Source of the DNA: Fidelibacterota bacterium
GTDB lineage: Bacteria > Fidelibacterota > Marinisomatia > Marinisomatales > Marinisomataceae
DNA length: 61,518 bases
NCBI GenBank assembly: GCA_029253045.1
Contig: JAQXAG010000048.1
Coordinates: forward strand, 1-61,518
Reading direction: 5' to 3'
Each line of letters begins with the position of its first letter. Position 1 is the stretch's first letter. Below the pieces are notes generated by a model, which saw only the letters and a list, made by a program, of their open reading frames with translations, was not told where the DNA came from and did no database searches. The translations under genes and the position numbers were made by a program. Of this stretch, positions 1-54,638 are shown piece by piece.

Positions 1-738
1 ACTCACAATCCAGACAGTCAAGAAAGGTTAATTTCTTTATGGAAAGATAATTGGATAGATAAAGGTTGGGAGCCCATAATCCTCAATAATGATTATGCGA
101 AAGCTCATCACTACTATGATGAATTTGTGGAAAAAATGTCAAAATTCCATGTTCTCATAACAGGAAATAAAATTAATAAATATGGAATTTATTGTTATAC
201 TAGATGGCTAGCTTACGCAATGCTGGAATCATCCGATCAAATTTATACTTGTGATTACGATTTAATAAACAATGGATTAAAGCCGAATGAAATAAAAAAT
301 TCTGGAGGGCTGCACTTAATGTCTGAGTATTGTCCATGTTTTATTTCTGGAAATTCTAAAGATTTTTTAAGAATGGCAAAGTTTATGGCTAACATTACGG
401 AGATGAGGTATGATTTTTTAAGAAACAATGTCAAAAATATGTCTGGAATGAGGTCTGGCATATATCATGATCAAGATGTGTTAGTAAATAATATATCAAA
501 TCTTTACTGTCCTTTTGGAGTCTCAATTGCAAGCGACTTGAAGTTTAATCTTTCTACGAAATATGTAGGACAAATGGCAAGCAAAAATACTTTTGATGAT
601 TTTGTTTTCAAAAAAAAGCTTCCAAAAACTTTGCACTTCTCAAGAAACAGCATGATTAGGTTTAAAAAACAAATTGGAGAAAATCAATTAGATGATGATG
701 TCTTAAGGTGCAATATTATAGAAGAAAAATTTAGATAA
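1..738 (+). CDS. hypothetical protein, 5'-truncated at window edge (weak DXD glycosyltransferase-like hint)
   Basis: Frame 1 is open from nt 1 (THNPDSQERLISLWKDNWIDKGW...) into track ORF 127-738. The GTG at 127 is therefore internal and the gene starts upstream of the window. Stop is TAA 736-738. RWLAYAMLESSDQIYTCDYDLIN loosely resembles the sugar-binding/DXD region of GT32-type glycosyltransferases. This is weak pattern recognition only. Confidence 0.55.
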   Translation, partial: THNPDSQERLISLWKDNWIDKGWEPIILNNDYAKAHHYYDEFVEKMSKFHVLITGNKINKYGIYCYTRWLAYAMLESSDQIYTCDYDLINNGLKPNEIKNSGGLHLMSEYCPCFISGNSKDFLRMAKFMANITEMRYDFLRNNVKNMSGMRSGIYHDQDVLVNNISNLYCPFGVSIASDLKFNLSTKYVGQMASKNTFDDFVFKKKLPKTLHFSRNSMIRFKKQIGENQLDDDVLRCNIIEEKFR

Positions 739-750
739 CTTAAATTATAT

Positions 751-760
751 GGTGTAATAA
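751..760 (+). promoter_or_regulatory. GGTGTAATAA upstream element (candidate phage promoter -10 region)
   Basis: Member of the recurrent (T/G)GTGTA(T)AAT family seen in most plus-strand intergenic gaps. The -10-like TAATAA ends 5 nt before ATG 766. No Shine-Dalgarno is visible. Confidence 0.4.
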
Positions 761-765
761 AAAGT

Positions 766-3315
766 ATGCCAGTGCCAAATTCAAGAATAAAAATAAAGAC
801 TGTAGAAAATTGCGATTTTATATCCTTACCTCTTGCTAAACCTGAATATTTCGGTAGGGAAAAAACATTCAGACTTAGAATAAAATGGGGAGATGGCAGT
901 ACAAATACTTATTCAAACAATTATGACAATGCGACTTTAGATTGGAATAGGGATTACGACACAGCTGGAAAAACTAAAAATTCAGTCCCTGAATCAGATA
1001 CTTTAGTTGTCCCCTTTCATTCCTATAAGGCTCCAGGGCAATACACCATCGAAATTTTTGGGGGATTTGATTATAGCCATGGTGAAAGCGATAACGAAAA
1101 CATAGGAACATTAAAGTTTGCATTTGCAGCCGCTGAAGACAGAATGGAAATATCAACAGGAGAGGGCGAGAATAAAGTTGTAACCAGGCAATGTGTAGGA
1201 ACGCCAGATAAAATTGAAGAGATTTTTGGATTAGGAAGTGCAAATAGGCCAAGGGGAGATTTATTTATTCACGGGCAAGGTGATTTTGAAGATTTTACGA
1301 ATTTAAAAAAAATACGTTGCTCGTTAAAACTTTTAAAATCAATCAAGTCTTCTTCAGAAGATAAAACTATATCATATAGCGAAGTGGACTCAGCTAAGGT
1401 ATGTTTTATAAATACTTTTAAAAATACAGAATCTTTAGAGCAAACCAAACAAATACAAAGATTACTTTCAGGCTCTCCCCAAGTTATAAATATGGAGGGG
1501 TGTTTTGATAATTCTGCATACAATGGGTCTTTATTGTGGAACACATCTGAGGTGAAAAATTTTAATAGAACATTTAGGAAGTCTAAAAATCTTGCCCCAA
1601 TTAAATTTTCTACATCATCCGCTGTAAGTATAGATTATATGTTTGAAGATTCTTATTGCGGACGAGTTTTTAAGATATTTAAAAAGTTATATAAGGGAAC
1701 TGCTAGCGGGGGGACTTCTTTCTGGAAGTTAGTTTTAACTAATAATTCAGGAAATACACTTTGGAGTAATGACGGAAGCATAGACATTGGATCTGCAGTC
1801 GGAGAGCCTTCAGCTTCAGTAAGTCTTGTTACAGAAACAGACGGAACAACTAAAAATAATTTTACTATAGGAGCAGGGGGAATGGACCCAATCAGTCCAG
1901 ATGCATTTATAGACCCATCAAAATCTAATGATTTTTATACAGATGCAAAGTTGCACTTCTGGACTAGCGATACGGATGAAGGAAATTACACTAAACAAAG
2001 TGTAGTTGTTTTAGATTTCAACTCCCCAGGGGTTATAAGGAAAAATGTAGATTCTTTAATTGGAGAATGGACTAATGTAGTATCAGCAGTAGGAACTTTT
2101 AAAGACCATAAAAAGTTAGATCCAGATTTATTGAAAAAGGCATTTGCAGCAGACAAGGAATATCCAATTGAAACTCTTGAAGCTTGTTTTGAAGGAACAA
2201 ATTTTTGGAAAAGCAGAAGGAATTATGCATTAAGGTGGGCGAGAGCTAAACCAAAATCATTAAGCAGATATATAAGGAATTCAAGAAATGCTTTTGATAT
2301 TAGTCGTATAGACACATCAAGACTTGAAAATGTGTCTCATGTTTGTGAAGATACTGATTATAACTTAGGAATAAATTTTAATTTCGAAAATGTAACGGAT
2401 GCATCTTACGCATTCGCTGGTTGTACTGGAAATCCTAAATTAACCGAAGCATTCTGGAGAAGAGGGCCCCTTAGAAGATACAATTTCAAGCCAATTAATG
2501 CTGAAGCAATGTTTGAAGGAAGTACTGGGTGGAGCGGCCAAAATTGGGACTGGCGACATATGAAGCCAACTTCATTAGAAAGAACTTTTAAAGATTGCGA
2601 TTTTAATGGAAGATTCAGCGGGATAAACACTTCAAATTGTACAAGTTTAAATTCTACATTTAAAAATAGCTCCTTTACATCAACAGATACAAATATCACG
2701 AAGTGGAATGTGAAAAATGTAGAAGATGCTAGCTATTGCTTTGAATTAAATCAAGGAGAATGGGACTTATCCTTATGGTTTAAACCAGAAAAAAGAAAAA
2801 ATTTTAAAATTAAAAATGTTACTGGATTTTTTGAAAGTTCAAAAAATAAAACAGTATGTAATGGTTGGGCTGCAACATTTGCAAAAACAGTTGTTTCAGC
2901 AAGTGCAATGTTTAAAAACAATACAGCAATTAAATTCAACGATATATATAAAATCCTAACAAATACTAGGAAAAACTCAAAGATTGAAGATATAGATGAA
3001 ATGTTCAGAGGCATAAAATTGGAAACGGGGGAACCTACTGGAAGTCAAAAATTTGAGATGAAAAAATGGCATTTAGCCAAACCAGAATGCAATCAGCACA
3101 TAAATGTTTTTAGAGGTGTAGGAATAACAATTCCCACAGTAACGTATGGAAGATGCAGGTTTAAATCTCATGAATCTAGAGACAATATTGTCGAAGATCC
3201 AATATACGAAAAGAAAAATTTATATGCTCATTCTGAAGTTGTATATAGAACGTTATGTAGTAGGGAAATGGGCCAGCAAGGTGAATACGACACAGTATTT
3301 ATGAAAGTAAGTTAA
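766..3315 (+). CDS. DUF285/BspA-like leucine-rich-repeat protein with N-terminal PKD-like WGD module
   Basis: 849-aa ORF. IKWGDGSTNTY...FHSYKAPGQYTIEIFGG resembles the PKD beta-sandwich signature (WxxGDG...HxYxxxGxYxI). From about aa 240 to 750 there are repeated ~25-30 aa units such as LWNTSEVKNFNRTFRKSKNL, NFENVTDASYAFAGC, WNVKNVEDASYCFEL and IEDIDEMFRG, as in DUF285/BspA-type repeats. Confidence 0.65.
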   Translation: MPVPNSRIKIKTVENCDFISLPLAKPEYFGREKTFRLRIKWGDGSTNTYSNNYDNATLDWNRDYDTAGKTKNSVPESDTLVVPFHSYKAPGQYTIEIFGGFDYSHGESDNENIGTLKFAFAAAEDRMEISTGEGENKVVTRQCVGTPDKIEEIFGLGSANRPRGDLFIHGQGDFEDFTNLKKIRCSLKLLKSIKSSSEDKTISYSEVDSAKVCFINTFKNTESLEQTKQIQRLLSGSPQVINMEGCFDNSAYNGSLLWNTSEVKNFNRTFRKSKNLAPIKFSTSSAVSIDYMFEDSYCGRVFKIFKKLYKGTASGGTSFWKLVLTNNSGNTLWSNDGSIDIGSAVGEPSASVSLVTETDGTTKNNFTIGAGGMDPISPDAFIDPSKSNDFYTDAKLHFWTSDTDEGNYTKQSVVVLDFNSPGVIRKNVDSLIGEWTNVVSAVGTFKDHKKLDPDLLKKAFAADKEYPIETLEACFEGTNFWKSRRNYALRWARAKPKSLSRYIRNSRNAFDISRIDTSRLENVSHVCEDTDYNLGINFNFENVTDASYAFAGCTGNPKLTEAFWRRGPLRRYNFKPINAEAMFEGSTGWSGQNWDWRHMKPTSLERTFKDCDFNGRFSGINTSNCTSLNSTFKNSSFTSTDTNITKWNVKNVEDASYCFELNQGEWDLSLWFKPEKRKNFKIKNVTGFFESSKNKTVCNGWAATFAKTVVSASAMFKNNTAIKFNDIYKILTNTRKNSKIEDIDEMFRGIKLETGEPTGSQKFEMKKWHLAKPECNQHINVFRGVGITIPTVTYGRCRFKSHESRDNIVEDPIYEKKNLYAHSEVVYRTLCSREMGQQGEYDTVFMKVS

Positions 3316-3328
3316 TAAAAAACATAAA

Positions 3329-6300
3329 ATGAATAACACAGAACATTTATTAGAAGTAGCCAAAAAAAAGTTAAAAGATTTTAAAATATCTTCGTTAAGC
3401 TTTGTTAAAGTAGCTGATTCAGAATTTTTAATATCAGCTTCAGTTGATCAACTCATAGAAGATCTTCCAAATTCAATAGAAATTGATGGAAAGGATTATA
3501 ATATAGATCAAAACATTTCAAAAATACAATTACTTGATGATACTGAATTAGAATTTGATGGAGTAACCAAAGACGAAGGACAAAGGTTACAAAAATGGAG
3601 GGCAAAAGTTCAGGGAGAAAATAACAGGGGGATTATATTTGAAAACGATTGTAATGCAGGGGATGACGGGACTGAATACCCAGATACGACTGTAAACAAA
3701 ACAAGAACTAGACCATTAAAATGTGGATTGTCAATAAGTGCTGATAAAGCATCGCAGGGAACTCTTGGTTGTTTCGCTATAGACAATCAAGATGGAAAAT
3801 TAGTTGGACTAACTAATGCGCACGTATTAGCTGAAAGGTTTTTATTAACTTCAGAAGGTGATGAAAGTGGATATAAAGCATCAGTCGAAAACACTAAAGT
3901 TTATCAAGGAGATATGTCCAACCTTTCTGGATTAACAGATGATGATGCAATTGGAATTGTTAAAAGATATTTTCCCGTAGGGCTGCCTTACACAACTAGA
4001 AGTGGCGGACACTCAATAACAAAGGACCAATATCAAATTGATGCAGCTTTAATAGCTATAAAAAAAGGAATGATAAATGAAAATTCCTGGAAGTTGGCTG
4101 GCATAGACAATACCTCTTTTAATGAAGGAGGGGCTCCTACTTTTGCATCTTACAACGAGCATTTAAATTGGGTTTATGATAGTTTTTGGGGCGGATACAA
4201 CTCAGATGTTGGAGGGGAGCTAGATGAATTCAAAACACCGCAAGAAAGTGACATGCTGACATCTGGTGCTGGTACTGGACCTAAGGATGGAACTGTAAGT
4301 GGAGATGATAATTATAGATGGAGAATTGTTGGTCCATATAAATTTCAAGAACAAAAATTCAAAAACTCAAAAAATCCAGATGCTACTATTATAAAGTTTG
4401 CAGCAAATAATGTAGCTATAGCAAGACAACAAAATAAAGATAGATATAAAAGCGACCAATTAAATACAATCGCAAGAGGTGATTGGTACTGTGCAGATAA
4501 TTTAATACCAGGAGATTCTGGATCTGTACTTTATGCTAAAATTAGAGGCAAATGGAAAATGGTTGGATTGATTTACGCCACTAAATTTGAGCACCCAACT
4601 CCCGAAACTATAACTTACAAAGAAGGTTTAATAATACCTTTTTATTTAGTTGCAGAACTTTTGGATATAAGCCCATGGGATGGGGTAATATCAGATGATA
4701 TTTTTTCTCAAGAAAAGAGCGGAGAAATAAGAACAGATCTTATTTATGCGAAAGGAAAAAGCAATATATACAGGCACGAAGTAGATCATAGACTTGGTAA
4801 AAGGGCTTATTTTCAAGCAGGAAGTGTCGAAAGAGAAAGGAATAGACAATATACAGCAGTACAAGAAAGCTTCGGTAGCGGAGACGGTGAAATAAGGCCA
4901 ATACAGAGAAATATAAGTGAATTTATTACTTATGATGGTATAGATATTGACTTGCCTACGGAAGGGTCTTTTGATAAATCAAACAAAGAATACCAATCAA
5001 ACCCTGTTTGGTTTAAAGTAAAAAATTTAAATGTACCAAATTCCACAATTCCAGCTAATATATTAGATCCAGGGAATGGAGTGATAACTCTTGATGTGGC
5101 AGTAATTAAAGAAGATTCTTTCGAGGGATTGGGGGAGAATTATTTCAAAAAAGAAAATAGAGGGAAAATAATATATGCATCAGCTCCTATATTAGAGTTT
5201 TATGGAAGTACTATAAATGCAAGTGGCACGAATATAGACAGTTTAGCTTCAAAAGTAAGCGATTTACTAGGGGGTGCTGATAGCAATTATCAACCTGGCA
5301 AACAATTTACGAATTTAAGCAAGGTCAGGTTTGATGACGGAAGAAAAGGTAGTAGAATTTCAGTACCAGAAAACGGTTTAAATTTAAATAAAGTAACAGG
5401 TTATATTGAACATTTTCCTTGGGAACTTGGTGCTGATGGAAAATCAAAAGGAGGAGCTAGAGCTACCCCCGAAAAACTTGAAGATTGGATTGAAGAAGGC
5501 TCTATAAAGTGCTTGGTATTAACTTATATAGATAAAGACTCTGAATATATAATAGATAAAGTTGATTTAGGGGCTATAGAAACTGCCGAGCTAGGCACGT
5601 TTCCAGAGCAGAAGAATGTAGCACCTACTGGAGATAAGATAATGAGGTTTGATATTGACACATCTAAATATCTATCAGACCTTACTGTGTTCACAAATGG
5701 AACTAACCAAAATTACGATTCTTATCACTGGAAAAATGGTAACGATAGAGCGGCTAAAACGGTAATGATACCAATTTTAGAAGTTGGAGAAGGGGGTGCT
5801 ACTATAAATTGGGGAGATAACACAACCACTCAAGTCCCAGCAAATTGGAAGATGAAAAATCAAAATCAGCTGGCGACTTGCTGGAAAAATTTAAAAGCTG
5901 GAGCAACTACAAATACTACACACCATCAAGTTCACCAGGATTTAGGTTATGATAAAATCATTCACTATTATCAAACAACTGGGGTAAAACAAATTACAAT
6001 TGAAGGGGATGTTTTGAGGTTTGGTCTGGTTGGATCTTTTCAGGACGAGGCTGTTTCCGCAGGAGGAACTAATTACCCAGCATCAGAAAAAGGTTGGAAC
6101 GCAAATCACGCACGGAATATTATTGGAGGGTTAGAGTCATCAGATTTCTATGAGTATTCTCTAATGTTCTCTTGCAGAGTTACATTTATTAATAAATTTC
6201 CAAATTGGCAAAATTGTGACTTTATATATCCATTTGTATTATCAAACATCACAGGATGGAATGTAAATTCTGAATTTGCTGGATTTAGATCTGTTGGAGC

Positions 6301-9300
6301 TTTCGTTACTCATATAAAAAAGAATAGCGAGTATTCGGAGCAAGAACAAGGTTGGGTTAAAGGGGATTGGGTGTCAGAAGGTTTTTCTGATTTTACAAAC
6401 GGTAATATAGGTCCATTTGATAATTGGAAATTTGGAGAAAATTACTCTGAAGATTTTGACTTTTTTGAAAGGGTGCAATACAAAGAGGGCGAAGATGGTT
6501 TTGGGGTAAAGCAGGTAATGCCTTATGAATCCCTTTACCATACTTTTTACCCCATAATTAGAAATGGTAACATTGCTATAAAAGGGACGAATACAATATG
6601 GCCATATTACTCAACACTCACAGATAAAAAATGGGAAGGGTTAGCTGAGCCAAAAGTATTAAATACCGACTCGCCTTATTCAGAAGTAATAGGTAATATC
6701 AGATTTAATCATGATTTAAAAATAGGAGTCTTAGAAACAAACCCAGCATCTATAAACCAAGAACCTTTCTATAATTATATTTGTAATCAAGTTAATAATT
6801 CTTCAAAACAGGTAAGTGTAAAACACTTAAAGTTAGAAAATTATAAAAGTTTTAATAGAAGTGATGAAATAAATTCTGGAGTCCCGTCAAAAAGTTATGA
6901 TTGGATGTCAAGAACTAATGTCGTTTTTATAGACGATGGTAGTATTGACTTTGCTAGCGGAACTCTTCCAAAATATTCAATAATAGCAAAATTATTAGCA
7001 AAAAATTATGAATTAAGTTCTTCGGAGGGAATAGATTCTATAGAAAATATTTTTGAGTCAGCGCGTATTAACTTTGCATCATTATCTGCTTTTATGAACC
7101 GTTTTACCTTAAAAGGTTCATGCTCTTACAAGCGGGCTTTTAAAAATGCTACATTTACTACTTCTATTGATTTTAGTAAGTTTAGTTTTTCTGGCAATGA
7201 CTTAACAGAGATGTTTAAATCAGCCACTTTTAAAGCTGGCAATGTGAATTTTTCAAAAATAGAAACACCAAGCTCTATTAAAGGCTGGTTTGAAGATGCT
7301 GTGATTAGTAATGGGACTATAAAAGGTCTAGCAGGCTTAAGGACCTCAGAGTCGACTGATATAAGAAATGCATTTTTAAATTTAAAAATACAATCTGATA
7401 TTACTGATCTGCCTAGATTAAAACTTTCTGAAGGGCAAACTTTTGATTTAATAACTAGTAAATGCGAGTCATTAAGAGACGAATTAGGTAATGTTAATCC
7501 ATCCGCATTTAGAGTGGCGACCGATTCGGCAGGATCTATTACATTGCCAGAAAATTTAAATTTTGTAAATGAAATAGTAGATTATGTAAGAATGACACCA
7601 GGCACTGTCAGTAATACTACTGAAGCATCGATATTAGAGAATGAATATTCAGTTGCAATTAATAAAGGTTATCCAGATGCCTCCCGAATTGGATGGGAAG
7701 ATAATCAAATAAAACCTTCTTTTGTCAAAGCAGGAAAATATGCAATATTAGTTGACTCAGCTAGGGGAACTCCATATTCTGCAAACTCCTCAGTGTATGA
7801 AAGCGATGAAAATAATTGGGCGTCAGTATATAATTCAAATTTAGATTTAGGTTTGTATCAAAGCGAATCAGGATATTGGACTAAAAGCGATAGGCGTTTA
7901 ATTGGGGGAAAACAATTTTTCGGAAATAATGCGGACGATTCTGAAGAGGTAACTGATACAAAATACATTAAGAAGTTCAAAGCTATGGCCCTTTCGAGTA
8001 ATGAATATTACTGGATGGGAGGTAATCCTGTTGTAGGCACTTATAATAAAAATGTTTTAAGTAATTTGTTTTCTTGCAGGACTTTATTTGAGAGTATTGG
8101 CAGGCATTCATATTGGGCAATAATAACCGTGGACAAAGATGAATACCAAAAACAAGACCTTCATTTAAGATTCAAGAATACTACATTCACAAGTAAGGAT
8201 TGGGCTGAAGTGTCGGTAGAACCTTTCAGCTATGCACATAACATGCTTCATGCAGCAGAATGGAATGGGGGGTCGATAAGCTCTCCAAGGAGCTTACTAA
8301 GCAACCAAAAAGGGAAATTTTGGACTGATGCAGAGGAGTTATTAGGACAAGGAGGTTTAGCTACTCTTGATTCAGACTCAGATGGCATATTGGATATAGA
8401 TGAAAAAGGAGATGATATCACAGATCCTGACACTAAAGATTCAAAGATAACAATAACTTATGCAGATTCTGCAGAGTATAATGCAATCGCATCGGTGGAT
8501 CATGACGATCTAGGTTATCTACCACAAGGACATGAAATAGCATCCAATAAAGTAGGCATTTCATTGCAAATTGGAACAGGTGGAATAACCATAGATTGGG
8601 GAGATGACAATGACCCCGTAGCTTATACTACCTCAAACTCAGGAGTTATAGTGAAAGATTACGAATCCTCAGGCGGAGAGAAAACTATTATAATAGACGG
8701 CGATGTTACTACTTTTGGCTCAGATAACAATCATGGTGTAGCAGGTCATTATCTATACGGTTACCACACAACATCATCAGAAACAGATAAAAATGTAAGA
8801 ATCTTTCTTGGAAGCCAATTCAGAATGAAATCTTTTAAGTATGAAGGTGGCGGAGGCCTATTGAAATTTGGAAGACCTTTTGGTATTGGAAATGGGGTAG
8901 TCAATAGTCAGCAGACGCATAAGGGGAAAACCATGTTTGATCCGACCAATAATTGGGCGGCTGAAAATACAGGATTGCCAAAATCTAATTGCCAGGTAAG
9001 TGTAGATTTGTCTGGATTCAAACCATACAGTATTAATAATATATCAGGTGTCTTTAGTCAGCTTTATACTCATGATTTGGATTTATCAAGTTTGGATTTT
9101 TCAAGAATTGTATCCATGGATGAACTTTTCGCTTGTGCTATTATCACTGGAAACCTTAAAATGCCAAAAGTTGACGACTCGAATCCTGCAATGCCTGATT
9201 CTAGATATTTTAATGAACGACAAAATACTTTTGACGCTTCACGAGGAAGCCCAGCAACAAGAAAACAAGCATTAAAAGATGCTCATAGAAGAGGAGGTTA

Positions 9301-11734
9301 TAAAAGATTAAATTGGAGCGGACCTCCTTTAAAAGCTTTGGAAGATGATGAAGGGTCTGGAGAGGGTTTCATATTAGAAAATATATCTAATTGTTATAGG
9401 CAGTATAGTAGGTTATTTGTGGGCGCAGTAATTAATGAAATAACATTTGGAAATTTTAAACCAATCTTTACTAAAGCTGAAGATTATGGATTTATTCTGG
9501 GCAGAGGTAGCAATTATATAAACAAAATAGATGGTGCTATAGCAGAGCAATTTCCTAAATCAAGCATGGGTAGAGGAGGTAAGGGGCTACTACTAGCCCC
9601 TCAAACAAAAGAAATAAATATGACCGCAAGCTTTGTTTCTAAAGGGAAGCAGTATAATGAAGAAAATGCTTGGACTGGGCCTTATGATAGAGAAATAACT
9701 TATGAATTATCTCTGGGAAAAGATGATAACACTGGAAATCAGCACATTGATGTTGTGGCTGAACAGGGGATAAGCGAGCCTATGACAACAGAAGGTGAAA
9801 TATTTGATACAAGTGTAATACTTAGGCTTAAAAAGAATTCTGGTTTTGAACCAGATTCAGTTAATAATTTAAGAGAGGCTAGAGCAAGGTTTAAAGTTGT
9901 GGATGGAGATGATCCTATTAAAGTTGGCGACTATTCCTTTAATTCTACTTTTGGTTACCAACAGATAGAATATGAAATGCCAAAAACCACAACAGTACAA
10001 GGGTTGGTTAATTTTATTAATTCTGAGGGTAAGCTAGCTGCTACCGTTCTAAGTGGAAATACAAGTCAAGTTGTAAGTGCATCTGCTGAATCTTCTCAAA
10101 TGTCTTTTTATGGACATAAACTTCTGGAATTAGATTTCACTGGAGTTACTGGAGGAATTACAGTTAGTGAAATTTATAGCGCAGGTTATCTTACATTAAA
10201 CCTTTCAATAGGCAATGGAAATACAAGACAAGATATGATTGATGCAATTAATCAAGACAGCTCAATTAATTCTAAATACACGGCTTCGGCAAAAAGCTAT
10301 CATAATAATGATGATCTAAATAATGTGATTAATGTTGGATCACCTACTATGAATCGGAATAGCTTTTCCCAAAATAGCAAAACATTACTGACTAAGGGGG
10401 GGATTGATCATGCTTCTTTAGGATGGTCAAATTTTGGAGAGTGGAGGCATCGAAATACATACATTGAAAATCCTTACAATGCAAGTTCCATAAATGTATA
10501 TCCTGATAATACTTATGTGTTTGATTGGAGCGATACCAACATACCAATAAAGTTCTCCTTAACTGATGGGGGGACAGAATGGAATGATCCAGACGGTGTT
10601 ATAACAGTAAACACCACACAAAAGAAAACTACATTGAATATAAATTCTAAATTCCCATCTCACGTTAATGGAACTTCGAATTTCCCTCAAACTGAAGCGG
10701 TTTTATATGGATACGCAGAAGGAAAGTCACTCTTTTCAATGAGAATAAACTATGTAAATAATAGAGGTTTCGTTCTTAAAGGTAAGAATTCTTGGGAAAA
10801 TTTTGGATATTCCTCAAAGCCATCGTTGTACCCTTTTAATGGGTACAGTGACATTAGCGAAGATAACTGGACAGAAGTCTCAACTTTACCGTTGATGGCT
10901 GGCTTAAAGTACATTATTGATTACTCAGAATTACATGAAGCAAGTATATACGACAAGCTTGATTTACTTGGTGATAATATCTCCGCTGGTACGCATATTC
11001 AAGTTTTTAATTATTTTACTTCTCATACCGACAACAGAGAGTTAATAATAGATTTAACTGATATGACAATAGATAATTATACTTCGCCATTTGATTGGGG
11101 AAACTATTCACAACCAGTTTTTGTGAATGGTATAGAATGGAATCAGGCTGGATTGACTATAGGATCAAAAAAATACAACCAAGAGAAAAACACAGCATCA
11201 TCAAACGTTTGTCATGTTAAATTTAATAGGGGTCCAGTAGCTGATGATAATATCTTGCCTAATAACAAACTTGTATATGCACAAAAAGACACCTGGTTCT
11301 ATGGAATTTTTGAAAATCATCAGCGATACAGCACTATTAAAAATAGAGGGGATATAGAACAATGGATGCAGCCAGGAAGCTATAAAGATCTTAATCTTTT
11401 AACTACTGAATTTGAGTATAAAAAATATGAAACTACAGTTTCCAGCCTTTTCGCTGGAAAAGATGAGGTTTACAAATATAATGATGATGGAACTATTACG
11501 ACTCAATCTGCGTCGAAAGTTTCAGATACTTGGGGAAGACAATTCGGTGATGACTCTTATGAATGGAAAAGGAACACTGATTTGATTACGGATATTAATC
11601 CTGCAGAAGCCAAGTATAGAAACAGTCAATGCGGATGCATAGATAGTATGTTAAACTTAAAAACTTTCAAATACACTCAATTAACTAATTTTGATGATTG
11701 GGCTGAAAAGTATCCAGAAAAAGCTCCATCATAA
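3329..11734 (+). CDS. giant (2,801 aa) multidomain protein: trypsin-like protease + PKD-like WGD modules + DUF285/BspA-like repeats
   Basis: Uninterrupted ORF starting 13 nt after the previous stop. Domains seen: a protease triad (nt ~3716-4620); two WGD modules (INWGDNTT, W at nt 5810; IDWGDDND, W at nt 8597), each followed by HxY/xxYxxxGxxxIxIxGDV; DUF285-like repeats (e.g. nt 7080-7310 and 9000-9140); and DSDSDGILDIDEKGDDITDPD (8368-8432), a thrombospondin-type-3-like Ca-binding aspartate motif. Confidence 0.7.
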   Translation: MNNTEHLLEVAKKKLKDFKISSLSFVKVADSEFLISASVDQLIEDLPNSIEIDGKDYNIDQNISKIQLLDDTELEFDGVTKDEGQRLQKWRAKVQGENNRGIIFENDCNAGDDGTEYPDTTVNKTRTRPLKCGLSISADKASQGTLGCFAIDNQDGKLVGLTNAHVLAERFLLTSEGDESGYKASVENTKVYQGDMSNLSGLTDDDAIGIVKRYFPVGLPYTTRSGGHSITKDQYQIDAALIAIKKGMINENSWKLAGIDNTSFNEGGAPTFASYNEHLNWVYDSFWGGYNSDVGGELDEFKTPQESDMLTSGAGTGPKDGTVSGDDNYRWRIVGPYKFQEQKFKNSKNPDATIIKFAANNVAIARQQNKDRYKSDQLNTIARGDWYCADNLIPGDSGSVLYAKIRGKWKMVGLIYATKFEHPTPETITYKEGLIIPFYLVAELLDISPWDGVISDDIFSQEKSGEIRTDLIYAKGKSNIYRHEVDHRLGKRAYFQAGSVERERNRQYTAVQESFGSGDGEIRPIQRNISEFITYDGIDIDLPTEGSFDKSNKEYQSNPVWFKVKNLNVPNSTIPANILDPGNGVITLDVAVIKEDSFEGLGENYFKKENRGKIIYASAPILEFYGSTINASGTNIDSLASKVSDLLGGADSNYQPGKQFTNLSKVRFDDGRKGSRISVPENGLNLNKVTGYIEHFPWELGADGKSKGGARATPEKLEDWIEEGSIKCLVLTYIDKDSEYIIDKVDLGAIETAELGTFPEQKNVAPTGDKIMRFDIDTSKYLSDLTVFTNGTNQNYDSYHWKNGNDRAAKTVMIPILEVGEGGATINWGDNTTTQVPANWKMKNQNQLATCWKNLKAGATTNTTHHQVHQDLGYDKIIHYYQTTGVKQITIEGDVLRFGLVGSFQDEAVSAGGTNYPASEKGWNANHARNIIGGLESSDFYEYSLMFSCRVTFINKFPNWQNCDFIYPFVLSNITGWNVNSEFAGFRSVGAFVTHIKKNSEYSEQEQGWVKGDWVSEGFSDFTNGNIGPFDNWKFGENYSEDFDFFERVQYKEGEDGFGVKQVMPYESLYHTFYPIIRNGNIAIKGTNTIWPYYSTLTDKKWEGLAEPKVLNTDSPYSEVIGNIRFNHDLKIGVLETNPASINQEPFYNYICNQVNNSSKQVSVKHLKLENYKSFNRSDEINSGVPSKSYDWMSRTNVVFIDDGSIDFASGTLPKYSIIAKLLAKNYELSSSEGIDSIENIFESARINFASLSAFMNRFTLKGSCSYKRAFKNATFTTSIDFSKFSFSGNDLTEMFKSATFKAGNVNFSKIETPSSIKGWFEDAVISNGTIKGLAGLRTSESTDIRNAFLNLKIQSDITDLPRLKLSEGQTFDLITSKCESLRDELGNVNPSAFRVATDSAGSITLPENLNFVNEIVDYVRMTPGTVSNTTEASILENEYSVAINKGYPDASRIGWEDNQIKPSFVKAGKYAILVDSARGTPYSANSSVYESDENNWASVYNSNLDLGLYQSESGYWTKSDRRLIGGKQFFGNNADDSEEVTDTKYIKKFKAMALSSNEYYWMGGNPVVGTYNKNVLSNLFSCRTLFESIGRHSYWAIITVDKDEYQKQDLHLRFKNTTFTSKDWAEVSVEPFSYAHNMLHAAEWNGGSISSPRSLLSNQKGKFWTDAEELLGQGGLATLDSDSDGILDIDEKGDDITDPDTKDSKITITYADSAEYNAIASVDHDDLGYLPQGHEIASNKVGISLQIGTGGITIDWGDDNDPVAYTTSNSGVIVKDYESSGGEKTIIIDGDVTTFGSDNNHGVAGHYLYGYHTTSSETDKNVRIFLGSQFRMKSFKYEGGGGLLKFGRPFGIGNGVVNSQQTHKGKTMFDPTNNWAAENTGLPKSNCQVSVDLSGFKPYSINNISGVFSQLYTHDLDLSSLDFSRIVSMDELFACAIITGNLKMPKVDDSNPAMPDSRYFNERQNTFDASRGSPATRKQALKDAHRRGGYKRLNWSGPPLKALEDDEGSGEGFILENISNCYRQYSRLFVGAVINEITFGNFKPIFTKAEDYGFILGRGSNYINKIDGAIAEQFPKSSMGRGGKGLLLAPQTKEINMTASFVSKGKQYNEENAWTGPYDREITYELSLGKDDNTGNQHIDVVAEQGISEPMTTEGEIFDTSVILRLKKNSGFEPDSVNNLREARARFKVVDGDDPIKVGDYSFNSTFGYQQIEYEMPKTTTVQGLVNFINSEGKLAATVLSGNTSQVVSASAESSQMSFYGHKLLELDFTGVTGGITVSEIYSAGYLTLNLSIGNGNTRQDMIDAINQDSSINSKYTASAKSYHNNDDLNNVINVGSPTMNRNSFSQNSKTLLTKGGIDHASLGWSNFGEWRHRNTYIENPYNASSINVYPDNTYVFDWSDTNIPIKFSLTDGGTEWNDPDGVITVNTTQKKTTLNINSKFPSHVNGTSNFPQTEAVLYGYAEGKSLFSMRINYVNNRGFVLKGKNSWENFGYSSKPSLYPFNGYSDISEDNWTEVSTLPLMAGLKYIIDYSELHEASIYDKLDLLGDNISAGTHIQVFNYFTSHTDNRELIIDLTDMTIDNYTSPFDWGNYSQPVFVNGIEWNQAGLTIGSKKYNQEKNTASSNVCHVKFNRGPVADDNILPNNKLVYAQKDTWFYGIFENHQRYSTIKNRGDIEQWMQPGSYKDLNLLTTEFEYKKYETTVSSLFAGKDEVYKYNDDGTITTQSASKVSDTWGRQFGDDSYEWKRNTDLITDINPAEAKYRNSQCGCIDSMLNLKTFKYTQLTNFDDWAEKYPEKAPS
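3716..4620 (+). other. trypsin-like (chymotrypsin-fold) serine peptidase domain inside the 2,801-aa ORF
   Basis: GTLGCFAIDNQDGKLVGLTNAHVLA (His165, nt 3821), QIDAALIAI (Asp238, nt 4040) and IPGDSGSVLYA...WKMVGLIYA (Ser397, nt 4517). The H-D-S order and the TNxHV / GDSGS contexts are typical of S1-family peptidases. The Asp-Ser spacing is longer than usual, implying an insertion. Confidence 0.65.
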
Positions 11735-11781: not shown

Positions 11782-12636
11782 ATGAATAATTTTGAAAAAA
11801 AAGTATTAAACTATCCATTTAAGTTAAAAAATAAAAAAGAAATACTAATTGATTTTTTCTTTCCTGAAAAAGATAATAATCCTAATAAACCTTTAGTTCT
11901 TTACTGTCACGGAGGGGGCTGGAGCCAAGGGGATAAAGAAAAAGCCCAAAAAGGTATTTTTAAAAAAGTTCACGAAGGATTACTTGAGAATGGATTTTGT
12001 ATTGCTTCGGTAGGGTATGATAAGGGAGAAGGAATACCCATTAGGGAATGTGTGACTGATTGTAAAGATGCATTAAGATTTATATTTTCAAAATCAAAAG
12101 AGCTAGGGGTTGACACTAAAAATATTTTTGTATTTGGAGATTCATCAGGAGGTCAAATAGCTCAAGTAATTTCTTTTACAGGAATTGAAGATTTTATCGG
12201 AGATAGTAAACTTAAAAATAATGCTTGTAGTGTGTCCGCAGTAGTGTCTTGGTATGCTCCAGTAGATTTTACGGATAAAAAATTAATGTTTAAAAATGAG
12301 CTCGCACGAAATAAAGATAGGTTTAGGGATAGAATAATGGCAGGAGCAAACCTTAAAGAAGAGCAGCAAAGAAGAGAAGAGATAAGCTCAATAACTTATT
12401 TGAGTGAATCAACTCCGCCTCTGCTTGTGATACACGGGGAGGAAGACGAAACTATTCCAGTAAAACACGCTAGGTTGATTAGAAAAAAAGCTGAAGAAAA
12501 GAATGCTAAAGTAAAAGTTTTAGTAATAAAAAATGCAGGTCATAACTGGAGAGCCACAGACGAAAAAATTTCAATTAAAAAAAATAGAATAATAAAGCAA
12601 ACTATAGATTTTTTTGTAAAAAATATCAAAAGTTAA
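11782..12636 (+). CDS. alpha/beta-hydrolase fold esterase (HGGG / GxSxG type, acetyl-esterase/lipase-like)
   Basis: 284 aa. LVLYCHGGGWSQGD (oxyanion HGGG, nt 11908-11922), FVFGDSSGGQIA (GxSxG nucleophile elbow, nt 12136-12153), LLVIHGEEDETIPV (acid) and KNAGHNW (His). No signal peptide is visible. Confidence 0.8.
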   Translation: MNNFEKKVLNYPFKLKNKKEILIDFFFPEKDNNPNKPLVLYCHGGGWSQGDKEKAQKGIFKKVHEGLLENGFCIASVGYDKGEGIPIRECVTDCKDALRFIFSKSKELGVDTKNIFVFGDSSGGQIAQVISFTGIEDFIGDSKLKNNACSVSAVVSWYAPVDFTDKKLMFKNELARNKDRFRDRIMAGANLKEEQQRREEISSITYLSESTPPLLVIHGEEDETIPVKHARLIRKKAEEKNAKVKVLVIKNAGHNWRATDEKISIKKNRIIKQTIDFFVKNIKS

Positions 12637-12676
12637 AAGTGACTTTCAAAGTTAACTTTAGACTTTCTCTCTTTGA

Positions 12677-12693
12677 GGTGTATAATATATTTA
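12677..12693 (+). promoter_or_regulatory. GGTGTATAATATATTTA candidate promoter abutting the portal start codon
   Basis: A perfect TATAAT (12681-12686) lies 7 nt before ATG 12694, with no room for a Shine-Dalgarno. A near-identical 27-nt copy, including the start codon and next two codons, lies on the minus strand at 56732-56758. Confidence 0.5.
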
Positions 12694-14724
12694 ATGAGCA
12701 AGAGAACATATACAAAAAAATCTCCATACTGGAACAAGTTTGCTTCTGGATCTTTAAATAAAGAGAATGAAGGCGAAGTAGGTATAAATGTGGAACCAGC
12801 TATGGCTGGAGACAATTACTATGTATCTAATGCATCTATGTATAATGGGGGATCGACAGGTACGACCTCAAGAAGAAAAAATTCAATATCCTCTTCAGCT
12901 AAGAATAATAGATTTTCTAACATACGGCAAGGAACATTGCCCTATACCCCAAGTTCTGATGGGGTCAATGTAAGAGACGCGATAGAGTTATGTCAAAAGG
13001 CTTATGCGAATGTTCCTATTTTTAGAAATGCGATTGACATAATGGCGGAGTTAGCAAACTCAACTATATCTGTTGAGGGTGGCAATGAGACCTCTAAAAA
13101 TTTTATAGAAAAATGGTTTTCAAAAATTAACCTATGGTCTTTAAAAGATCAGTTTTTTAGAGAGTATTATAGAAGTGGCAATGTATTTTTATATAGATTA
13201 GATGGCAAATTCTCAGCAGAAGATTTCGTAAAATTAAATAAAATATATGGATCTGAGTATCTAAAAGAAGGCTATATTCCAATAAAATATGTGTTACTAA
13301 ATCCTTATGATGTTATAGCTAATAGGTCTACTTCTTTCAAAGGTAGTGCTTATAAAAAAATACTTTCAGAATATGAGTTGGAAAAACTCCAAAACCCAAA
13401 AACAGAAGAAGATAAAGAGATTTATAATGCTCTTCCAGAAGAAACCAAAAAGAAAATAAAATCTGGAGGTTGGTCTGGAGATGGAGTATCAATGGATTTA
13501 GACGCTTCAAAATTAATACATGCTTTTTATAAAAAACAAGATTACGAACCTTTTGCAATACCGTTTGGATATCCAGTTTTAGATGATATTAACTGGAAAA
13601 TGGAATTAAAAAAGGTTGACCAAGCCATAAGTAGAACTATAGAAAATGTAATTTTACTTATAACAATGGGTACAGATCCAGACAAGGGAGGAATTAATCC
13701 AAATAATTTAAATGCCATGCAGAGCCTTTTTCAAAACGAAAGTGTTGGAAGAGTTTTAGTTTCTGATTATACAACTAAAGCTGAATTTATACTACCAGAC
13801 ATCAGTAAAGTGATTGGGCCTGAAAAATATAAAATAGTAAATGAAGATATTTCTCAAGGTTTACAGAATGTTATTGTCGGAGATGAAAAATATAAAAACA
13901 CCCAAGTTAAAGCTGAAATATTCCTAGAAAGGTTAAAGGAAGCTAGGCAATCATTCTTGCATAACTTTCTTCAACCTCAAATAAAAATGGTTTGTAAAGC
14001 TATGGGATTTAAAATATACCCAACAGCAAAGTTTGAAGAAATAGATATTAAAGACGAAGTTCAATTACAAAGAGTTGTAACTAGATTAATTGAAATGGGA
14101 ATATTGACTCCTGAGCAAGGTGTTAAAGCTATTAAAACTGGAATATATCCTGAAATTGAAGATATTGAAAAAGCACAGAAGAGATATATCGAAAAAAGAA
14201 AAGAGGGAATGTACAACCCACTAGTAGGTGGCTTGCCTATGGTTGATGTCGATGGAGATGGAACAGTAGACACCGTTCCATCAGGGAATCCTGAAGAAGG
14301 CGGAAGTTCCAATAAAACTCCCACTCCAAAAGGTTCTGGTAGGCCAGTAGGTAGACCTAGGGGAACAAAAGGCATACCTAGAACAGTGAATGCTACAGAA
14401 GATTTATATTCTAGAAAAGACATCCAAGCTATTGTTTATAAAACCCAAGAGTTGGAAAATCATATTAAAGAAGCTTTTGCAAACAAAACAAACAAAGAAG
14501 AGCTATCAGAAGAGCAAAATGAAATGTGCTCCCAACTAACAAAAAGCATAGTTATGGCAAAAGATAAAAACCAATGGAGAAGATGTGCTAATTCATGTAT
14601 AAAAGATTTTGAAAAAATAGAAAAACTTAAAGTTTTAAAAAATATTTTAGAAATATCTGAAGAGAAAAATTTAGAACTTTATGCTTCTTCATTACTTTAT
14701 CACAGTAAAAAACAAAAAACTTAA
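12694..14724 (+). CDS. portal protein (candidate)
   Basis: The track ORF starts at TTG 12673. I prefer ATG 12694 (MSKRTYTKK...) because of the promoter-like element. The protein is 676 aa and lies directly upstream of the protease/scaffold, D-position and capsid genes (lambda B-C/Nu3-D-E order). VPIFRNAIDIMAELANSTISVEG...FFREYYRSGNVFLY looks like portal-family proteins. There is a Gly/Pro/basic C-terminal extension. Confidence 0.7.
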   Translation: MSKRTYTKKSPYWNKFASGSLNKENEGEVGINVEPAMAGDNYYVSNASMYNGGSTGTTSRRKNSISSSAKNNRFSNIRQGTLPYTPSSDGVNVRDAIELCQKAYANVPIFRNAIDIMAELANSTISVEGGNETSKNFIEKWFSKINLWSLKDQFFREYYRSGNVFLYRLDGKFSAEDFVKLNKIYGSEYLKEGYIPIKYVLLNPYDVIANRSTSFKGSAYKKILSEYELEKLQNPKTEEDKEIYNALPEETKKKIKSGGWSGDGVSMDLDASKLIHAFYKKQDYEPFAIPFGYPVLDDINWKMELKKVDQAISRTIENVILLITMGTDPDKGGINPNNLNAMQSLFQNESVGRVLVSDYTTKAEFILPDISKVIGPEKYKIVNEDISQGLQNVIVGDEKYKNTQVKAEIFLERLKEARQSFLHNFLQPQIKMVCKAMGFKIYPTAKFEEIDIKDEVQLQRVVTRLIEMGILTPEQGVKAIKTGIYPEIEDIEKAQKRYIEKRKEGMYNPLVGGLPMVDVDGDGTVDTVPSGNPEEGGSSNKTPTPKGSGRPVGRPRGTKGIPRTVNATEDLYSRKDIQAIVYKTQELENHIKEAFANKTNKEELSEEQNEMCSQLTKSIVMAKDKNQWRRCANSCIKDFEKIEKLKVLKNILEISEEKNLELYASSLLYHSKKQKT

Positions 14725-14769: not shown

Positions 14770-16398
14770 ATGTACAAATATAAAACTTTTTTCTCTAGCG
14801 AAATACAAGCTTCAAGTATAGACAATAATAATACAGAATCTATTTCTAAGGCTTCTTTGCAATCATTAAAATCTTTAATGCCTGAAGGAATAGATCTTGA
14901 AGGTAATATAGATTTAATTGCTGTAGCTTTTAATGCTGCCGTAGTTAATGTATTTAATAAGAATCATGACGGAATAAATACTGAAACCGCAAAAGCTGTA
15001 TATAAATACTTTGTAAATAAACCCACAAATATAGAACATAAAAAACAAAAAGTTGTGGGTCATATCATTTCTTCTGGATTTTCAAAGTACGGAACTAATG
15101 AAATTTTAGAAGTAGAAGATATAGAACAATCATATGAGCCTTTTAATATAGCCTTATCGGCTCTAGTTTATAAAACTGTAAATCCTGAGTTTGCAGATTT
15201 AATAGAAAAGTCATCTGACGAGAACGATCCAATGCACAATGTTATTTCTGCCAGCTGGGAAATAGGGTTTAATGATTATGCAATAGCCGTTGGTAGTAAA
15301 AATTTAAAAGAAGCCGAAATTGTAACAGAAGAAAAACAAAAAGAAGAATTGAAAAAATATTTAAAAGCTTTTGATGGAGACGGCCTCATGGACGACGGAA
15401 CTGAAATATATAGATTAGTAGCGGGTGATGTTTATCCATTGGGAATTGGGTTTACCACCAATCCAGCCGCAAATGTAAAGGGAACTATCCAATTAGATAA
15501 AAAAAAAGCAGTGGAAGAAGATCAAATAAAAAACGAAGAAAAAGCTGAAAAGATAGAGGTTAACTTTGACAATTTTTTAAAAAAAATAATAAATATTAAA
15601 AAAAATTCTTCACATACGGAAAAAACGCATGTAATTTCAGACAAACCGAATTTAATCAAAACCGTTCAAAAAATGGAAACACAAGAACTCATCGATCAAC
15701 TCAAGGAAACAATCTTAGCATCAAGCTCTGATAAGTTCTCCGAAGAAGCTGTCGCAAACATCGTAAAGGTAGTATCTGATGCTATCAGAGAAAAGAGCGA
15801 TGTTTACGTTCAAGAAAAAGCTGATTTGGAAACTCAAAGACAAGAGGTAGAAGCTGCCAAAGTCGAATCCGAAAAAAAGCTAATAGAACTTGAGGAAAAA
15901 TTAACCGCTTCTGAAGAAACCTTATCTAAGATTCAGGCAGAGCAAGACGAAGCTAGAAAGCTTCAATTGTTTAATGACAGAATGTCTTCCTTAGATGAAG
16001 AATACGAACTGTCAGACGATGACAGAAAAATTTTGGCATCCGAAGTTAGTGGAGTTGAAGAAGGCGAAGAAGCTTTCGCAACTTACCAAGAAAAAATAGC
16101 GATAGTTTTCAAGCATAAGAATAAATCTTTTATTGAAGAGCAAGAAAAAACTTTTAACGAAAAAGTACTTGCTGAAGTAGAGAAAAGAATGTCGAACGAT
16201 ATTGAAGCTCATGCTTCTGAAGAGGTTGCTGAAGTAGCTGAAGAAATTTCTCAAGAAGTGGTAGAAGAAGTTCTAGAACAGATTGAGTCCAGCGAAGACA
16301 TTCCTTCTAACAATGGTGAATCCACCGAAAAAGACTTATCTCTTGCTGATAAATTTAAATCAGCTTTTAACAAAGAATCCATAACAATTAAATACTAA
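14770..16398 (+). CDS. prohead protease - scaffolding fusion protein (candidate)
   Basis: 542 aa. In the N-terminal ~240 aa, NIEHKKQKVVGHI (His90), ISASWEIGF (Ser162) and LGIGFTTNPAANVKG resemble the conserved blocks of HK97-type (S78) prohead proteases. The C-terminal ~250 aa are acidic and heptad-like (EKADLETQRQEVEAAKVESEKKLIELEEKLTASEETLSKIQAEQDEARKLQ), typical of scaffolds. Confidence 0.5.
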   Translation: MYKYKTFFSSEIQASSIDNNNTESISKASLQSLKSLMPEGIDLEGNIDLIAVAFNAAVVNVFNKNHDGINTETAKAVYKYFVNKPTNIEHKKQKVVGHIISSGFSKYGTNEILEVEDIEQSYEPFNIALSALVYKTVNPEFADLIEKSSDENDPMHNVISASWEIGFNDYAIAVGSKNLKEAEIVTEEKQKEELKKYLKAFDGDGLMDDGTEIYRLVAGDVYPLGIGFTTNPAANVKGTIQLDKKKAVEEDQIKNEEKAEKIEVNFDNFLKKIINIKKNSSHTEKTHVISDKPNLIKTVQKMETQELIDQLKETILASSSDKFSEEAVANIVKVVSDAIREKSDVYVQEKADLETQRQEVEAAKVESEKKLIELEEKLTASEETLSKIQAEQDEARKLQLFNDRMSSLDEEYELSDDDRKILASEVSGVEEGEEAFATYQEKIAIVFKHKNKSFIEEQEKTFNEKVLAEVEKRMSNDIEAHASEEVAEVAEEISQEVVEEVLEQIESSEDIPSNNGESTEKDLSLADKFKSAFNKESITIKY

Positions 16399-38495: not shown

Positions 38496-38535
38496 ATCTC
38501 AATCGAAAAAAATACAAAAAATAATATAATATATA

Positions 38536-39441: not shown

Positions 39442-39824
39442 TGAAAAGTGAAATTTTAAATAAAATTAAAAAGATTTCAGAATCCCAAAAAGAAGAAGAA
39501 ATTTGCGGGTTTATTGTAGAAGATAAAGGTAAAGAACATTTGGTTGAATGTGAAAATGTGTCTTTTCATAAAAAAGGTAATTTTGAGATATCACAAAAAA
39601 AATTTGTAGAAGTTTTTGAGCAAAATAAAATTTTAATTATTTACCATTCCCATCCAGAAAATACAGAACAGTTTTCAAAAGAAGATATAAATCTTAGTGA
39701 ATCTTTGATTCTGCCAATTATAGTTTATAGTAATCAAACTGAAAAATTTAACATACATATTCCCAAGGGGGTGAAAAGAAATAAATCATTAAACAGGGTG
39801 GAAAAAAGTGTAGTTACTTATTAG
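39441..39824 (+). CDS. JAB/MPN (JAMM) metallopeptidase-domain tail protein, lambda gpK N-terminal-like, without NlpC/P60 domain
   Basis: 127 aa. EEICGFIVE (upstream Glu) plus HSHPENTEQFSKED equals H-x-H-x7-S-x2-D (nt 39645-39686), a complete JAMM motif. It sits between the L-like and I-like genes. Confidence 0.8.
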   Translation: MKSEILNKIKKISESQKEEEICGFIVEDKGKEHLVECENVSFHKKGNFEISQKKFVEVFEQNKILIIYHSHPENTEQFSKEDINLSESLILPIIVYSNQTEKFNIHIPKGVKRNKSLNRVEKSVVTY

Positions 39825-39836
39825 GGAATAAGGTTT

Positions 39837-40547: not shown

Positions 40548-40550
40548 GCT

Positions 40551-54626: not shown

Positions 54627-54638
54627 AATAAATTATTG

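Follow-up and report, generated by a model that had tools for sequence, protein, structure and literature searches.

Why would a tailed phage encode, two genes ahead of its portal, a protein of 2,801 residues that begins with a serine protease? This question is raised by a gene at positions 3329..11734 (+ strand) of the window analyzed here, which is the whole 61,518-nucleotide stretch of contig JAQXAG010000048.1. The window is that of a tailed phage, with a tape measure of 3,545 aa, gpM-, gpL-, JAB/gpK-, and gpJ-like genes, and a BppL_N fiber. The phage is siphovirus-like and marine, and the gene in question lies in its rightward late block, before the portal. We infer that its product, hereafter the giant protein, is probably a late-expressed, active protease that targets the host surface and is carried by the virion.

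The open reading frame (ORF) is uninterrupted from an ATG start through 2,801 codons to the stop, and its start codon is correct, because the orthologs align from residue 1. An identical 2,801-aa sequence is deposited at NCBI as hypothetical protein P8P37_02315 of a “Candidatus Marinimicrobia” metagenome-assembled genome (MAG). An initial annotation, made from the letters of the DNA, had named within this frame the motifs TNAHV (H165), IDAAL (D238), GDSGS (S397), WGD at residues 828 and 1757, and DSDSDGILDIDEKGDD at residue 1681; the frame and every one of these motifs were found where they had been placed.

A NAL1-type serine protease unit at the N terminus

To identify the fold of the N-terminal part, we modeled aa 1-480 with AlphaFold2 (AF2) from an alignment of 74 sequences; the mean predicted local distance difference test score (pLDDT) is 80 and the predicted template modeling score (pTM) 0.83, and the model is a prediction and not an experimental structure. 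Its best Foldseek matches among solved structures are all entries of rice NARROW LEAF 1 (NAL1; PDB 7Y77, 8PMG, 8PMI, and 8HAS), with E-values from 5e-11 to 1e-7 over about 475 columns. The next matches are alpha-lytic protease (target-normalized template modeling [TM] score of 0.66), the Lysobacter L1 and L5 proteases, and thrombin; for NAL1, alpha-lytic protease, and thrombin, the match probability is 1.00. When the 74-sequence profile was compared with PDB sequences, NAL1 was again matched (E 4e-9), with the TNxHV and GDSGS motifs in register and with profile positions 24-149 aligned to the NAL1 N-domain through the His motif; chymotrypsin and 3C proteases were matched more weakly, in their GDSG region. 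The correspondence of the predicted triad to solved proteases is thus one of sequence, with its His and Ser motifs aligned to NAL1 and chymotrypsin. Searches of the PDB sequences by phmmer with the single sequence and with a four-sequence profile gave no match, and Pfam, PHROG, and NCBIfam scans of the giant protein returned DUF285 alone, below threshold.

The first ~505 residues of the giant protein make up a complete NAL1-type unit, in which a small beta domain at the N terminus is joined by a linker to a predicted double barrel of the chymotrypsin fold (all features of the gene are on the + strand). The NAL1_N-like, beta-rich N-terminal domain (aa 1-70; 3329..3538) has five predicted strands with pLDDT values of 81-95 and is matched by profile to the N-domain of NAL1. 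It is followed by a low-confidence linker (aa 71-100; 3539..3628), in which the pLDDT falls below 50 at residues 73-95 and 97-100. The serine protease domain of the PA clan (aa 101-452; 3629..4684), delimited from AF2, Foldseek, and the family profile, is strand-rich over aa 130-450, the double beta-barrel region, carries a helical insertion at about aa 255-310, and has its C-terminal limit at a conserved PWDG motif, with the model remaining confident beyond this motif, through aa 470. A C-terminal tail (aa 453-510; 4685..4858), recognized from the G.S....I...GK.YWQ.G motif region of the family consensus, closes the unit, and it is here that stand-alone members of the family stop. What the initial annotation had taken for a pro-region of ~130 aa is therefore the NAL1-like N-domain plus the disordered linker, because the NAL1 match also covers the region ahead of the barrel.

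The predicted catalytic residues are the best conserved feature of the unit among the 152 best family members, whose overall identity is only ~25-30%. His165 (codon 3821..3823, in TNAHV), the predicted catalytic base, is invariant (152/152) and aligns with the TNxHV motif of NAL1, to which the catalytic H234 of that protease belongs (PMC12012508). The predicted nucleophile, Ser397 (codon 4517..4519, in GDSGS), lies in a G-D-S-G motif that is likewise present in 152/152 and aligns with the GDSGS of NAL1 and chymotrypsin. Asp238 (codon 4040..4042, in IDAAL), the predicted catalytic acid, is found in 151 of the 152 members; it is placed by conservation and by its order between His and Ser, as in PA-clan proteases, with no direct alignment to D291 of NAL1. 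Such conservation is far beyond chance and, judged from the sequences, points to strong selection for the triad. A further position, W450, lies about 53 residues after the catalytic Ser and is W in 125 members and Y or F in 17 more.

Altogether, the family profile, the AF2 and Foldseek results, and the conservation bear out the proposal that an intact chymotrypsin-fold (PA clan) serine peptidase with H165/D238/S397 sits at the N terminus, and the support for an S1 fold that was sought in profile searches came from the family profile, with the AF2 model in agreement. The accompanying label “trypsin-like” is right as far as the PA-clan chymotrypsin fold goes but does not extend to classical trypsin (S1A), given that the unit is of the NAL1 type. 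The Pfam families Trypsin and Trypsin_2 have no match in the giant protein at E<=1, and among its relatives Trypsin matches weakly in 2 of 40 (best 0.0069). An S74 chaperone was rejected as well, with no Pfam or PHROG match and with the peptidase sitting N-terminally; the contrast that had been drawn with phage fibers bearing C-terminal S74 chaperone peptidases is thus a valid one.

The unit belongs to a large viral family and is often found alone

The protease family is almost entirely metagenomic, large, and viral. A profile of four orthologs, searched against 1.84 billion representative proteins, recovered 481 clusters at E<=1e-3, of which 217 were at <=1e-10. The PHROG profile phrog_20754 (“protease”) was matched by 39 of 40 family members, and the giant protein itself does not reach it. 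The Pfam profile of the NAL1 N-domain (NAL1_N, PF25608) gave weak matches in 5/40 and 1/39 family members and none in the giant protein. The best viral structural match is A0A7S9XDX3, a protein of 449 aa from Virus NIOZ-UU157 (E 1.8e-25, TM 0.63/0.67).

Member lengths show how the unit is used. Among the 152 best members, 78 are at most 520 aa long, 48 measure 520-1,000 aa, and 26 exceed 1,000 aa, such that stand-alone proteins of ~430 aa account for about half of the family. BLAST alignments of these stand-alone members stop at about aa 498-516 of the giant protein. From these sizes and this boundary, we conclude that the unit is a protein in its own right, to which C-terminal extensions have been added repeatedly. 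In other long members, the extensions contain fn3, DUF285 (3.6e-203), BNR/Asp-box, RCC1 propeller, F5/8-C, CBM_5_12, SprB, and comparable modules, which is the repertoire of extracellular binding proteins.

The family left almost no trace in GenBank phage records and species genomes. Searches of 50,697 GenBank phage records found nothing, either by megablast or by tblastn with the giant protein, a stand-alone member, the family consensus, and seven concatenated diverse members as queries; the lack of a tblastn match marks a piece of marine phage biology without an identified isolate. In 185,579 species genomes, narrow motif patterns hit one short MAG contig and, weakly, one Halomonas sequence. 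These two marginal matches give no indication of the host, and at the sensitivity of such patterns the family seems rare among cellular genomes.

A tentative modular plan for the C-terminal extension

Beyond the protease unit, the giant protein continues for ~2,300 residues, over which its orthologs differ in extent. Three of them (P0002, P0003, and P0004; 1,605-1,667 aa) align to residues 1 to ~1660 at 38% identity; P0008 (2,955 aa) aligns along the whole length, including the distal half; and P0005 and P0006 (~4,870 aa) have in common the first ~730 aa plus scattered modules. Tentatively, we read the extension as a conserved connector, followed by two units that each contain a WGD module and DUF285-like repeats, with a DxDxDG hinge between the units and an unassigned C-terminal region at the end.

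The connector (aa 511-795; 4859..5713) has no recognizable fold and is kept in all giant orthologs, including one of 4,873 aa. It leads into WGD module 1 (aa 796-905; 5714..6043), which is defined by the pattern I.WGD...H.Y..G...I.I.G, is PKD-like by motif only, and was detected by jackhmmer and hhalign; in the latter comparison, aa 826-894 pair with aa 39-100 of the product of the upstream ORF (78.6% probability, E 1.7e-5). A tentative DUF285/BspA-like repeat region 1 (aa 1232-1366; 7022..7426) was likewise placed by hhalign, through its pairing with aa 517-649 of the upstream product (75.5% probability, E 2.4e-5), a segment that overlaps the Pfam DUF285 match at 580-671.

At the junction of units 1 and 2 lies the DxDxDG calcium-binding-type motif DSDSDGILDIDEKGDD (aa 1681-1696; 8369..8416). 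It is present in a single copy, for which we estimate that ~0.09 would be expected by chance from composition, and it recurs at the equivalent place as LDTDGDGILDADE in P0008 and as LDSDFDGYPDIID in P0005 and P0006. The DxDxDG loop normally occurs in repeats, and Pfam TSP_3 has no match in the giant protein. The orthologs of 1,605-1,667 aa stop just ahead of this position, which suggests that the motif marks a hinge after which the second unit was added.

The second unit begins with WGD module 2, a shorter copy (aa 1732-1798; 8522..8722) with jackhmmer domain matches of 3.5e-6 and 0.084, in a region ~52% identical to P0008. DUF285-like region 2 (aa 1886-1945; 8984..9163) stays below threshold, at a Pfam E-value of 0.053 and 13.7 bits over aa 1892-1936, where the curated cut-off of DUF285 (PF03382) is 25 bits. 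The C-terminal region (aa 1946-2801; 9164..11731) has no recognizable domain, and P0008 is its sole detected homolog (24-30% identity). P0008 also has an extra segment at aa ~835-925 with a cupredoxin-like “HYYCSAHSQMG” motif, which is absent from the giant protein and is another sign of module swapping.

The sharing of modules is visible only with profiles. When the giant protein was compared with itself by BLAST, no repeat was seen within it, and BLAST comparisons with the upstream ORF and with the tail giants were likewise negative; jackhmmer locates the WGD module in the orthologs and in the upstream ORF as well, and in none of the other giant phage proteins of the window. Given the shared profiles, the giant protein and its upstream neighbor therefore have the same design of a WGD module plus DUF285-like repeats, which occurs twice in the giant. 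An AF2 model of aa 790-1440, built from 4 sequences, has an overall pLDDT of 55, with values of 80-90 only at aa ~1190-1420, a stretch that includes repeat region 1, and of 74-87 in the strands around the WGD motif; Foldseek with this poor model returned nothing below E=2.

The names that the initial annotation gave to these modules are reasonable but unproven. Its two WGD modules, which it took for beta-sandwiches, are real and recurring, and their PKD resemblance holds at the motif level, with no structural match and no Pfam PKD match in the giant protein. Similarly, its DUF285 repeats are plausible from a similarity to the DUF285 region of the neighbor but are not backed by the Pfam score, and its calcium-binding-type motif is present, and conserved in three orthologs, but has no supporting profile.

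The giant gene lies in a hypervariable island beside conserved head genes

Relatives of this phage were found on contigs, 57-199 kb in length, in marine assemblies (Tara and others) and among the viral contigs of IMG/VR. They keep one gene order, namely PhoH, DnaJ, further genes, a DUF285 ORF, the protease-headed giant ORF, an esterase in some, and the portal, and the giant gene occupies its syntenic slot in every relative examined. Immediately upstream of the giant gene, the DUF285 ORF (766..3315, +) encodes 849 aa with a WGD module and DUF285 repeats (Pfam DUF285, 5.7e-14). Downstream lies an alpha/beta-hydrolase esterase of the BD-FAE type (11782..12636, +; 284 aa; Pfam BD-FAE 1.2e-42, phrog_3341 esterase), which is found in the window and in one relative (L001) and is absent from three others (L002, L009, and L011). 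The probable portal (12673..14724, +; 683 aa) is the first conserved head gene after the island, as identified by tblastn at 2e-6 to 2e-5 against the annotated portals of Bacillus phages Stills, Slash, and Staley (RefSeq) and by a hidden Markov model (HMM) of the portal orthologs, which scores 42 bits on the Stills portal. The giant gene and the portal and head genes all run in one direction, and the gaps measure only 13-48 bp.

The divergence of these genes is uneven. Identity to the relatives is 72-84% for the portal and 73-91% for the probable capsid protein, compared with 33-38% for the giant protein; in the island, the DUF285 ORF is 40% identical to its ortholog in L001 and the esterase 43%. 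The length of the giant protein varies across syntenic relatives as well (1,005, 1,605, 1,667, 2,801, and 4,873 aa). Its most conserved part is the protease domain, at 52-62% identity to the orthologs, and distally identity falls to 20-30%; even so, in L001 the portal and probable capsid protein are 84-91% identical, vs 52-62% for the protease unit. The three-gene island of DUF285 protein, giant protein, and esterase evolves much faster than the flanking head genes, and a hypervariable island beside conserved head genes is the usual signature of host-interaction genes. One additional giant, on the 65-kb viral contig IMGVR_UViG_3300007541_000020 (L013, positions 1-10564), is a single reading frame without stops, longer than 3,521 aa and cut by the contig end; it is a P0005-like ortholog with the protease unit.

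The statement that the giant gene lies just upstream of head genes holds for the portal; for the genes that follow, the capsid, scaffold, and protease assignments are a matter of gene order and size. The ORFs after the portal encode 542, 228, and 353 aa, in the order and with the sizes of scaffold/protease, accessory, and capsid genes, and neither PDB sequence and profile searches nor tblastn gave an identity for any of the three. Within the first (14770-16398, 542 aa), we noted by eye N-terminal His/Ser motifs (VGHIISSGF, ISASWEIGF, and GIGFTTNPA) resembling those of HK97-type prohead proteases, and an acidic, coiled-coil, scaffold-like C-terminal half; neither reading has profile or PDB support. 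Prohead protease profiles (S78, U35, ClpP; S14/S49) match no ORF of the window, and HMM and hhalign searches gave no identity for the neighbors of stand-alone family members.

A proposed host-surface protease and its alternatives

The interpretation that we place first, and to which we give somewhat less than an even chance in its entirety, starts from a protease unit that would be catalytically active. By analogy with NAL1, the unit would oligomerize into a three-fold ring, possibly two stacked rings, by which three (or six) long, variable arms would be gathered into a bundle. These arms would bind ligands on the surface of the host or of the particle, thereby bringing the protease to a protein substrate in the host envelope. 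The giant protein would do this either from the virion, as an appendage, or as a late protein working together with the neighboring esterase.

Several observations weigh against this interpretation. The presence of the giant protein in virions is something that we infer, and a full set of tail-tip and fiber genes already exists downstream. No typical tail-fiber or spike domain was found in the giant protein or in the extensions of 39 long relatives, and the adhesin-type modules of the giant protein lie below curated thresholds, in addition to the poor model of aa 790-1440 and its lack of a fold match. Because NAL1 itself degrades intracellular proteins inside a cage, likeness to it gives no reason to expect a surface substrate. 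Since the N terminus has no signal peptide-like sequence, an extracellular role would need virion incorporation or lysis.

A bolder version of the host-surface proposal, which we consider improbable, makes the NAL1-like unit the mark of a class of phage host-recognition machinery not recognized before: a conserved ring- or cage-forming active hub for three or six interchangeable adhesin arms, giving marine phages a virion-borne proteolytic “depolymerase” directed not at polysaccharide but at protein surface layers such as the S-layer, outer-membrane proteins, or pili. If this were true, the stand-alone and giant forms would lie at opposite ends of a single modular system, and viruses or prokaryotes would possess an abundant equivalent of the NAL1 architecture of plants.

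Among the alternatives, it is conceivable, if rather unlikely, that the giant protein is a polyprotein that processes itself in cis or in trans, cutting after the PWDG/YWQ.G tail (~aa 450-510) or between modules to yield a free protease and one or more binding proteins. A cut after the tail would resemble those made by viral PA-clan proteases such as the alphavirus capsid protease, and, after NAL1, the best viral structural neighbors of the unit are PA-clan proteases, 3C-like and other, from the polyproteins of RNA viruses. The end of the stand-alone unit coincides exactly with the start of the extension, which provides a natural domain boundary for autoprocessing, and the position of the conserved aromatic W450 recalls the spacing from Ser to the C-terminal Trp in the alphavirus capsid protease. 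However, the half of the family without an extension keeps the triad invariant, so that the conserved substrate must be something else; moreover, no cleavage-site motif is definable, and the confident part of the AF2 model runs past PWDG. The same invariant triad contradicts a dead pseudo-protease whose fold would serve for oligomerization or attachment alone. That NAL1 activity depends on the quaternary state, with free trimers having a misaligned triad (PMC12012508), lends this idea some plausibility, but conservation of His, Asp, and G-D-S-G across 152 divergent members is a signature of selection for catalysis, and we regard a dead domain as very improbable.

Two further alternatives concern where the protein acts. 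It may, although we think this unlikely, be a non-virion late enzyme that destroys receptors or remodels the surface, either released at lysis or acting from inside on envelope precursors, and that together with the esterase and the DUF285 protein would strip or modify host surface proteins and glycans, e.g., to stop progeny from adsorbing to debris or to block superinfection. Its place outside the recognizable tail module, in a fast-evolving island where its partners are an esterase of the carbohydrate type and a DUF285 protein, would suit such an enzyme, as would the dispensability of the esterase in relatives, which is common for accessory genes; its lack of a signal peptide or membrane anchor, its tight co-orientation with the portal and head genes, and its conserved syntenic slot would not. 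A head-associated role appears less likely still, whether as a capsid-assembly or maturation protease, as a capsid- or portal-bound protein with the extension as a head fiber or decoration, or as a protein that is packaged and ejected, as are giant internal proteins in some phages. The gene is near the portal, stand-alone members have, on their own contigs, neighboring ORFs about as large as portal and capsid genes, and no ORF of the window matches a prohead protease profile. Conversely, the protease unit diverges much faster than the portal and probable capsid protein, as seen with L001, unlike a maturation protease co-evolving with its capsid, ORF 14770-16398 has the prohead-protease-like motifs and scaffold-like half described above, and the binding modules in relatives (fn3, CBM, BNR, F5/8-C) argue against an internal, ejected protein. 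We rejected the prohead maturation protease in particular, given the absence of a profile match and an identity in L001 of 52-62% for the unit compared with 91% for the probable capsid protein.

Relation to known proteins and significance

What is new here is a giant modular phage protein whose conserved head is a PA-clan, NAL1-type protease. Like NAL1, which is both its best structural match and its only significant profile match among PDB sequences, the giant protein has an N-terminal domain followed by a chymotrypsin-fold protease. Unlike NAL1, it is viral rather than from a plant, shows 11-14% identity in the Foldseek alignments, has no direct Pfam match, and adds the helical insertion and the 2,300-aa C-terminal extension. 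In NAL1, the triad is H234/D291/S385, the N-terminal domain binds ATP and mediates trimer contacts, and two trimers stack into a D3 hexamer cage that is required for activity (PMC12012508). The likeness of the giant protein to NAL1 consists of fold and motifs, and ATP binding and the D3 cage are known for NAL1 alone.

Other comparisons are more partial. The phrog_20754 proteins and A0A7S9XDX3 are stand-alone versions of the protease unit that lack the extension (~430 aa). Alpha-lytic protease and the Lysobacter L1/L5 proteases have in common with the unit the double beta-barrel and the H-D-S triad (target-normalized TM 0.59-0.66); in contrast to these ~200-aa catalytic domains, the giant protein has a NAL1-type N-domain, large insertions, and no signal peptide. 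Bacterial proteases of the alpha-lytic type are made with signal peptides and cleaved pro-regions. As in S74 tail spikes and fibers, a large phage protein here joins a peptidase with elongated binding modules, but the peptidase, a member of the PA clan, sits at the N terminus and is conserved in stand-alone form, and its gene is not part of the tail module. Jumbo phages and giant viruses, among them Vibrio phage vB_VhaM_pir03 (ORF200, PMC7765460) and Kratosvirus quantuckense (PMC10720644), have very large ORFs with DUF285/BspA-like repeats; no N-terminal protease has been reported there, and DUF285 is sub-threshold in the giant protein and clear in its upstream neighbor. In pir03, the 19-kb DUF285 ORF ends at 187,867, 134 bases before the start of the DNA-packaging gene ORF 202 at 188,001 (PMC7765460).

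In the literature, we found no paper on phage or prokaryotic NAL1-like proteases and no experimental work on the phrog_20754 family or the NIOZ-UU157 protein. The protease family is therefore large and undescribed and, to judge from its conserved residues, apparently active. The NAL1 architecture has so far been studied mainly in a plant developmental protease, and the same two-domain unit with an intact predicted triad is now seen in several hundred viral clusters. It stands two genes upstream of the portal in the phage of the window and in every close relative examined, and it is sometimes fused to binding arrays that reach ~4,900 aa. If virion-borne and active, the giant protein would do to proteins what the depolymerases of phage fibers do to polysaccharides, offering a route into hosts with protein surface layers and a source of targeted proteases. 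On a conservative reading, the result is an annotation, “NAL1-like serine protease unit”, for a family labeled “hypothetical” or “protease”.

Other features of the window

The binning of this contig into a “Candidatus Marinimicrobia” MAG may be an artifact or a hint at the host; the recognizable genes of the window are phage structural genes. Neither a large terminase nor a tRNA gene was identified in the window, and a promoter and terminator scan gave results at chance level. Between the fiber genes, the rightward late block is broken by two minus-strand ORFs of 356 and 701 aa (53556-56744), neither of which has a Pfam or NCBIfam match; the 701-aa ORF has no tblastn match in GenBank phages. 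A lambda-like tail-tip module occupies 37527-49193 and contains gpM-, gpL-, and JAB/gpK-like ORFs, an ORF of 236 aa, and a gpJ-like protein of 2,880 aa with Phage-tail_3. The tape-measure ORF (25300-35937; Pfam PhageMin_Tail 1.9e-25) encodes 3,545 aa, which, at ~1.5 Å of tail per tape-measure residue, implies an unusually long tail of ~0.5 µm.

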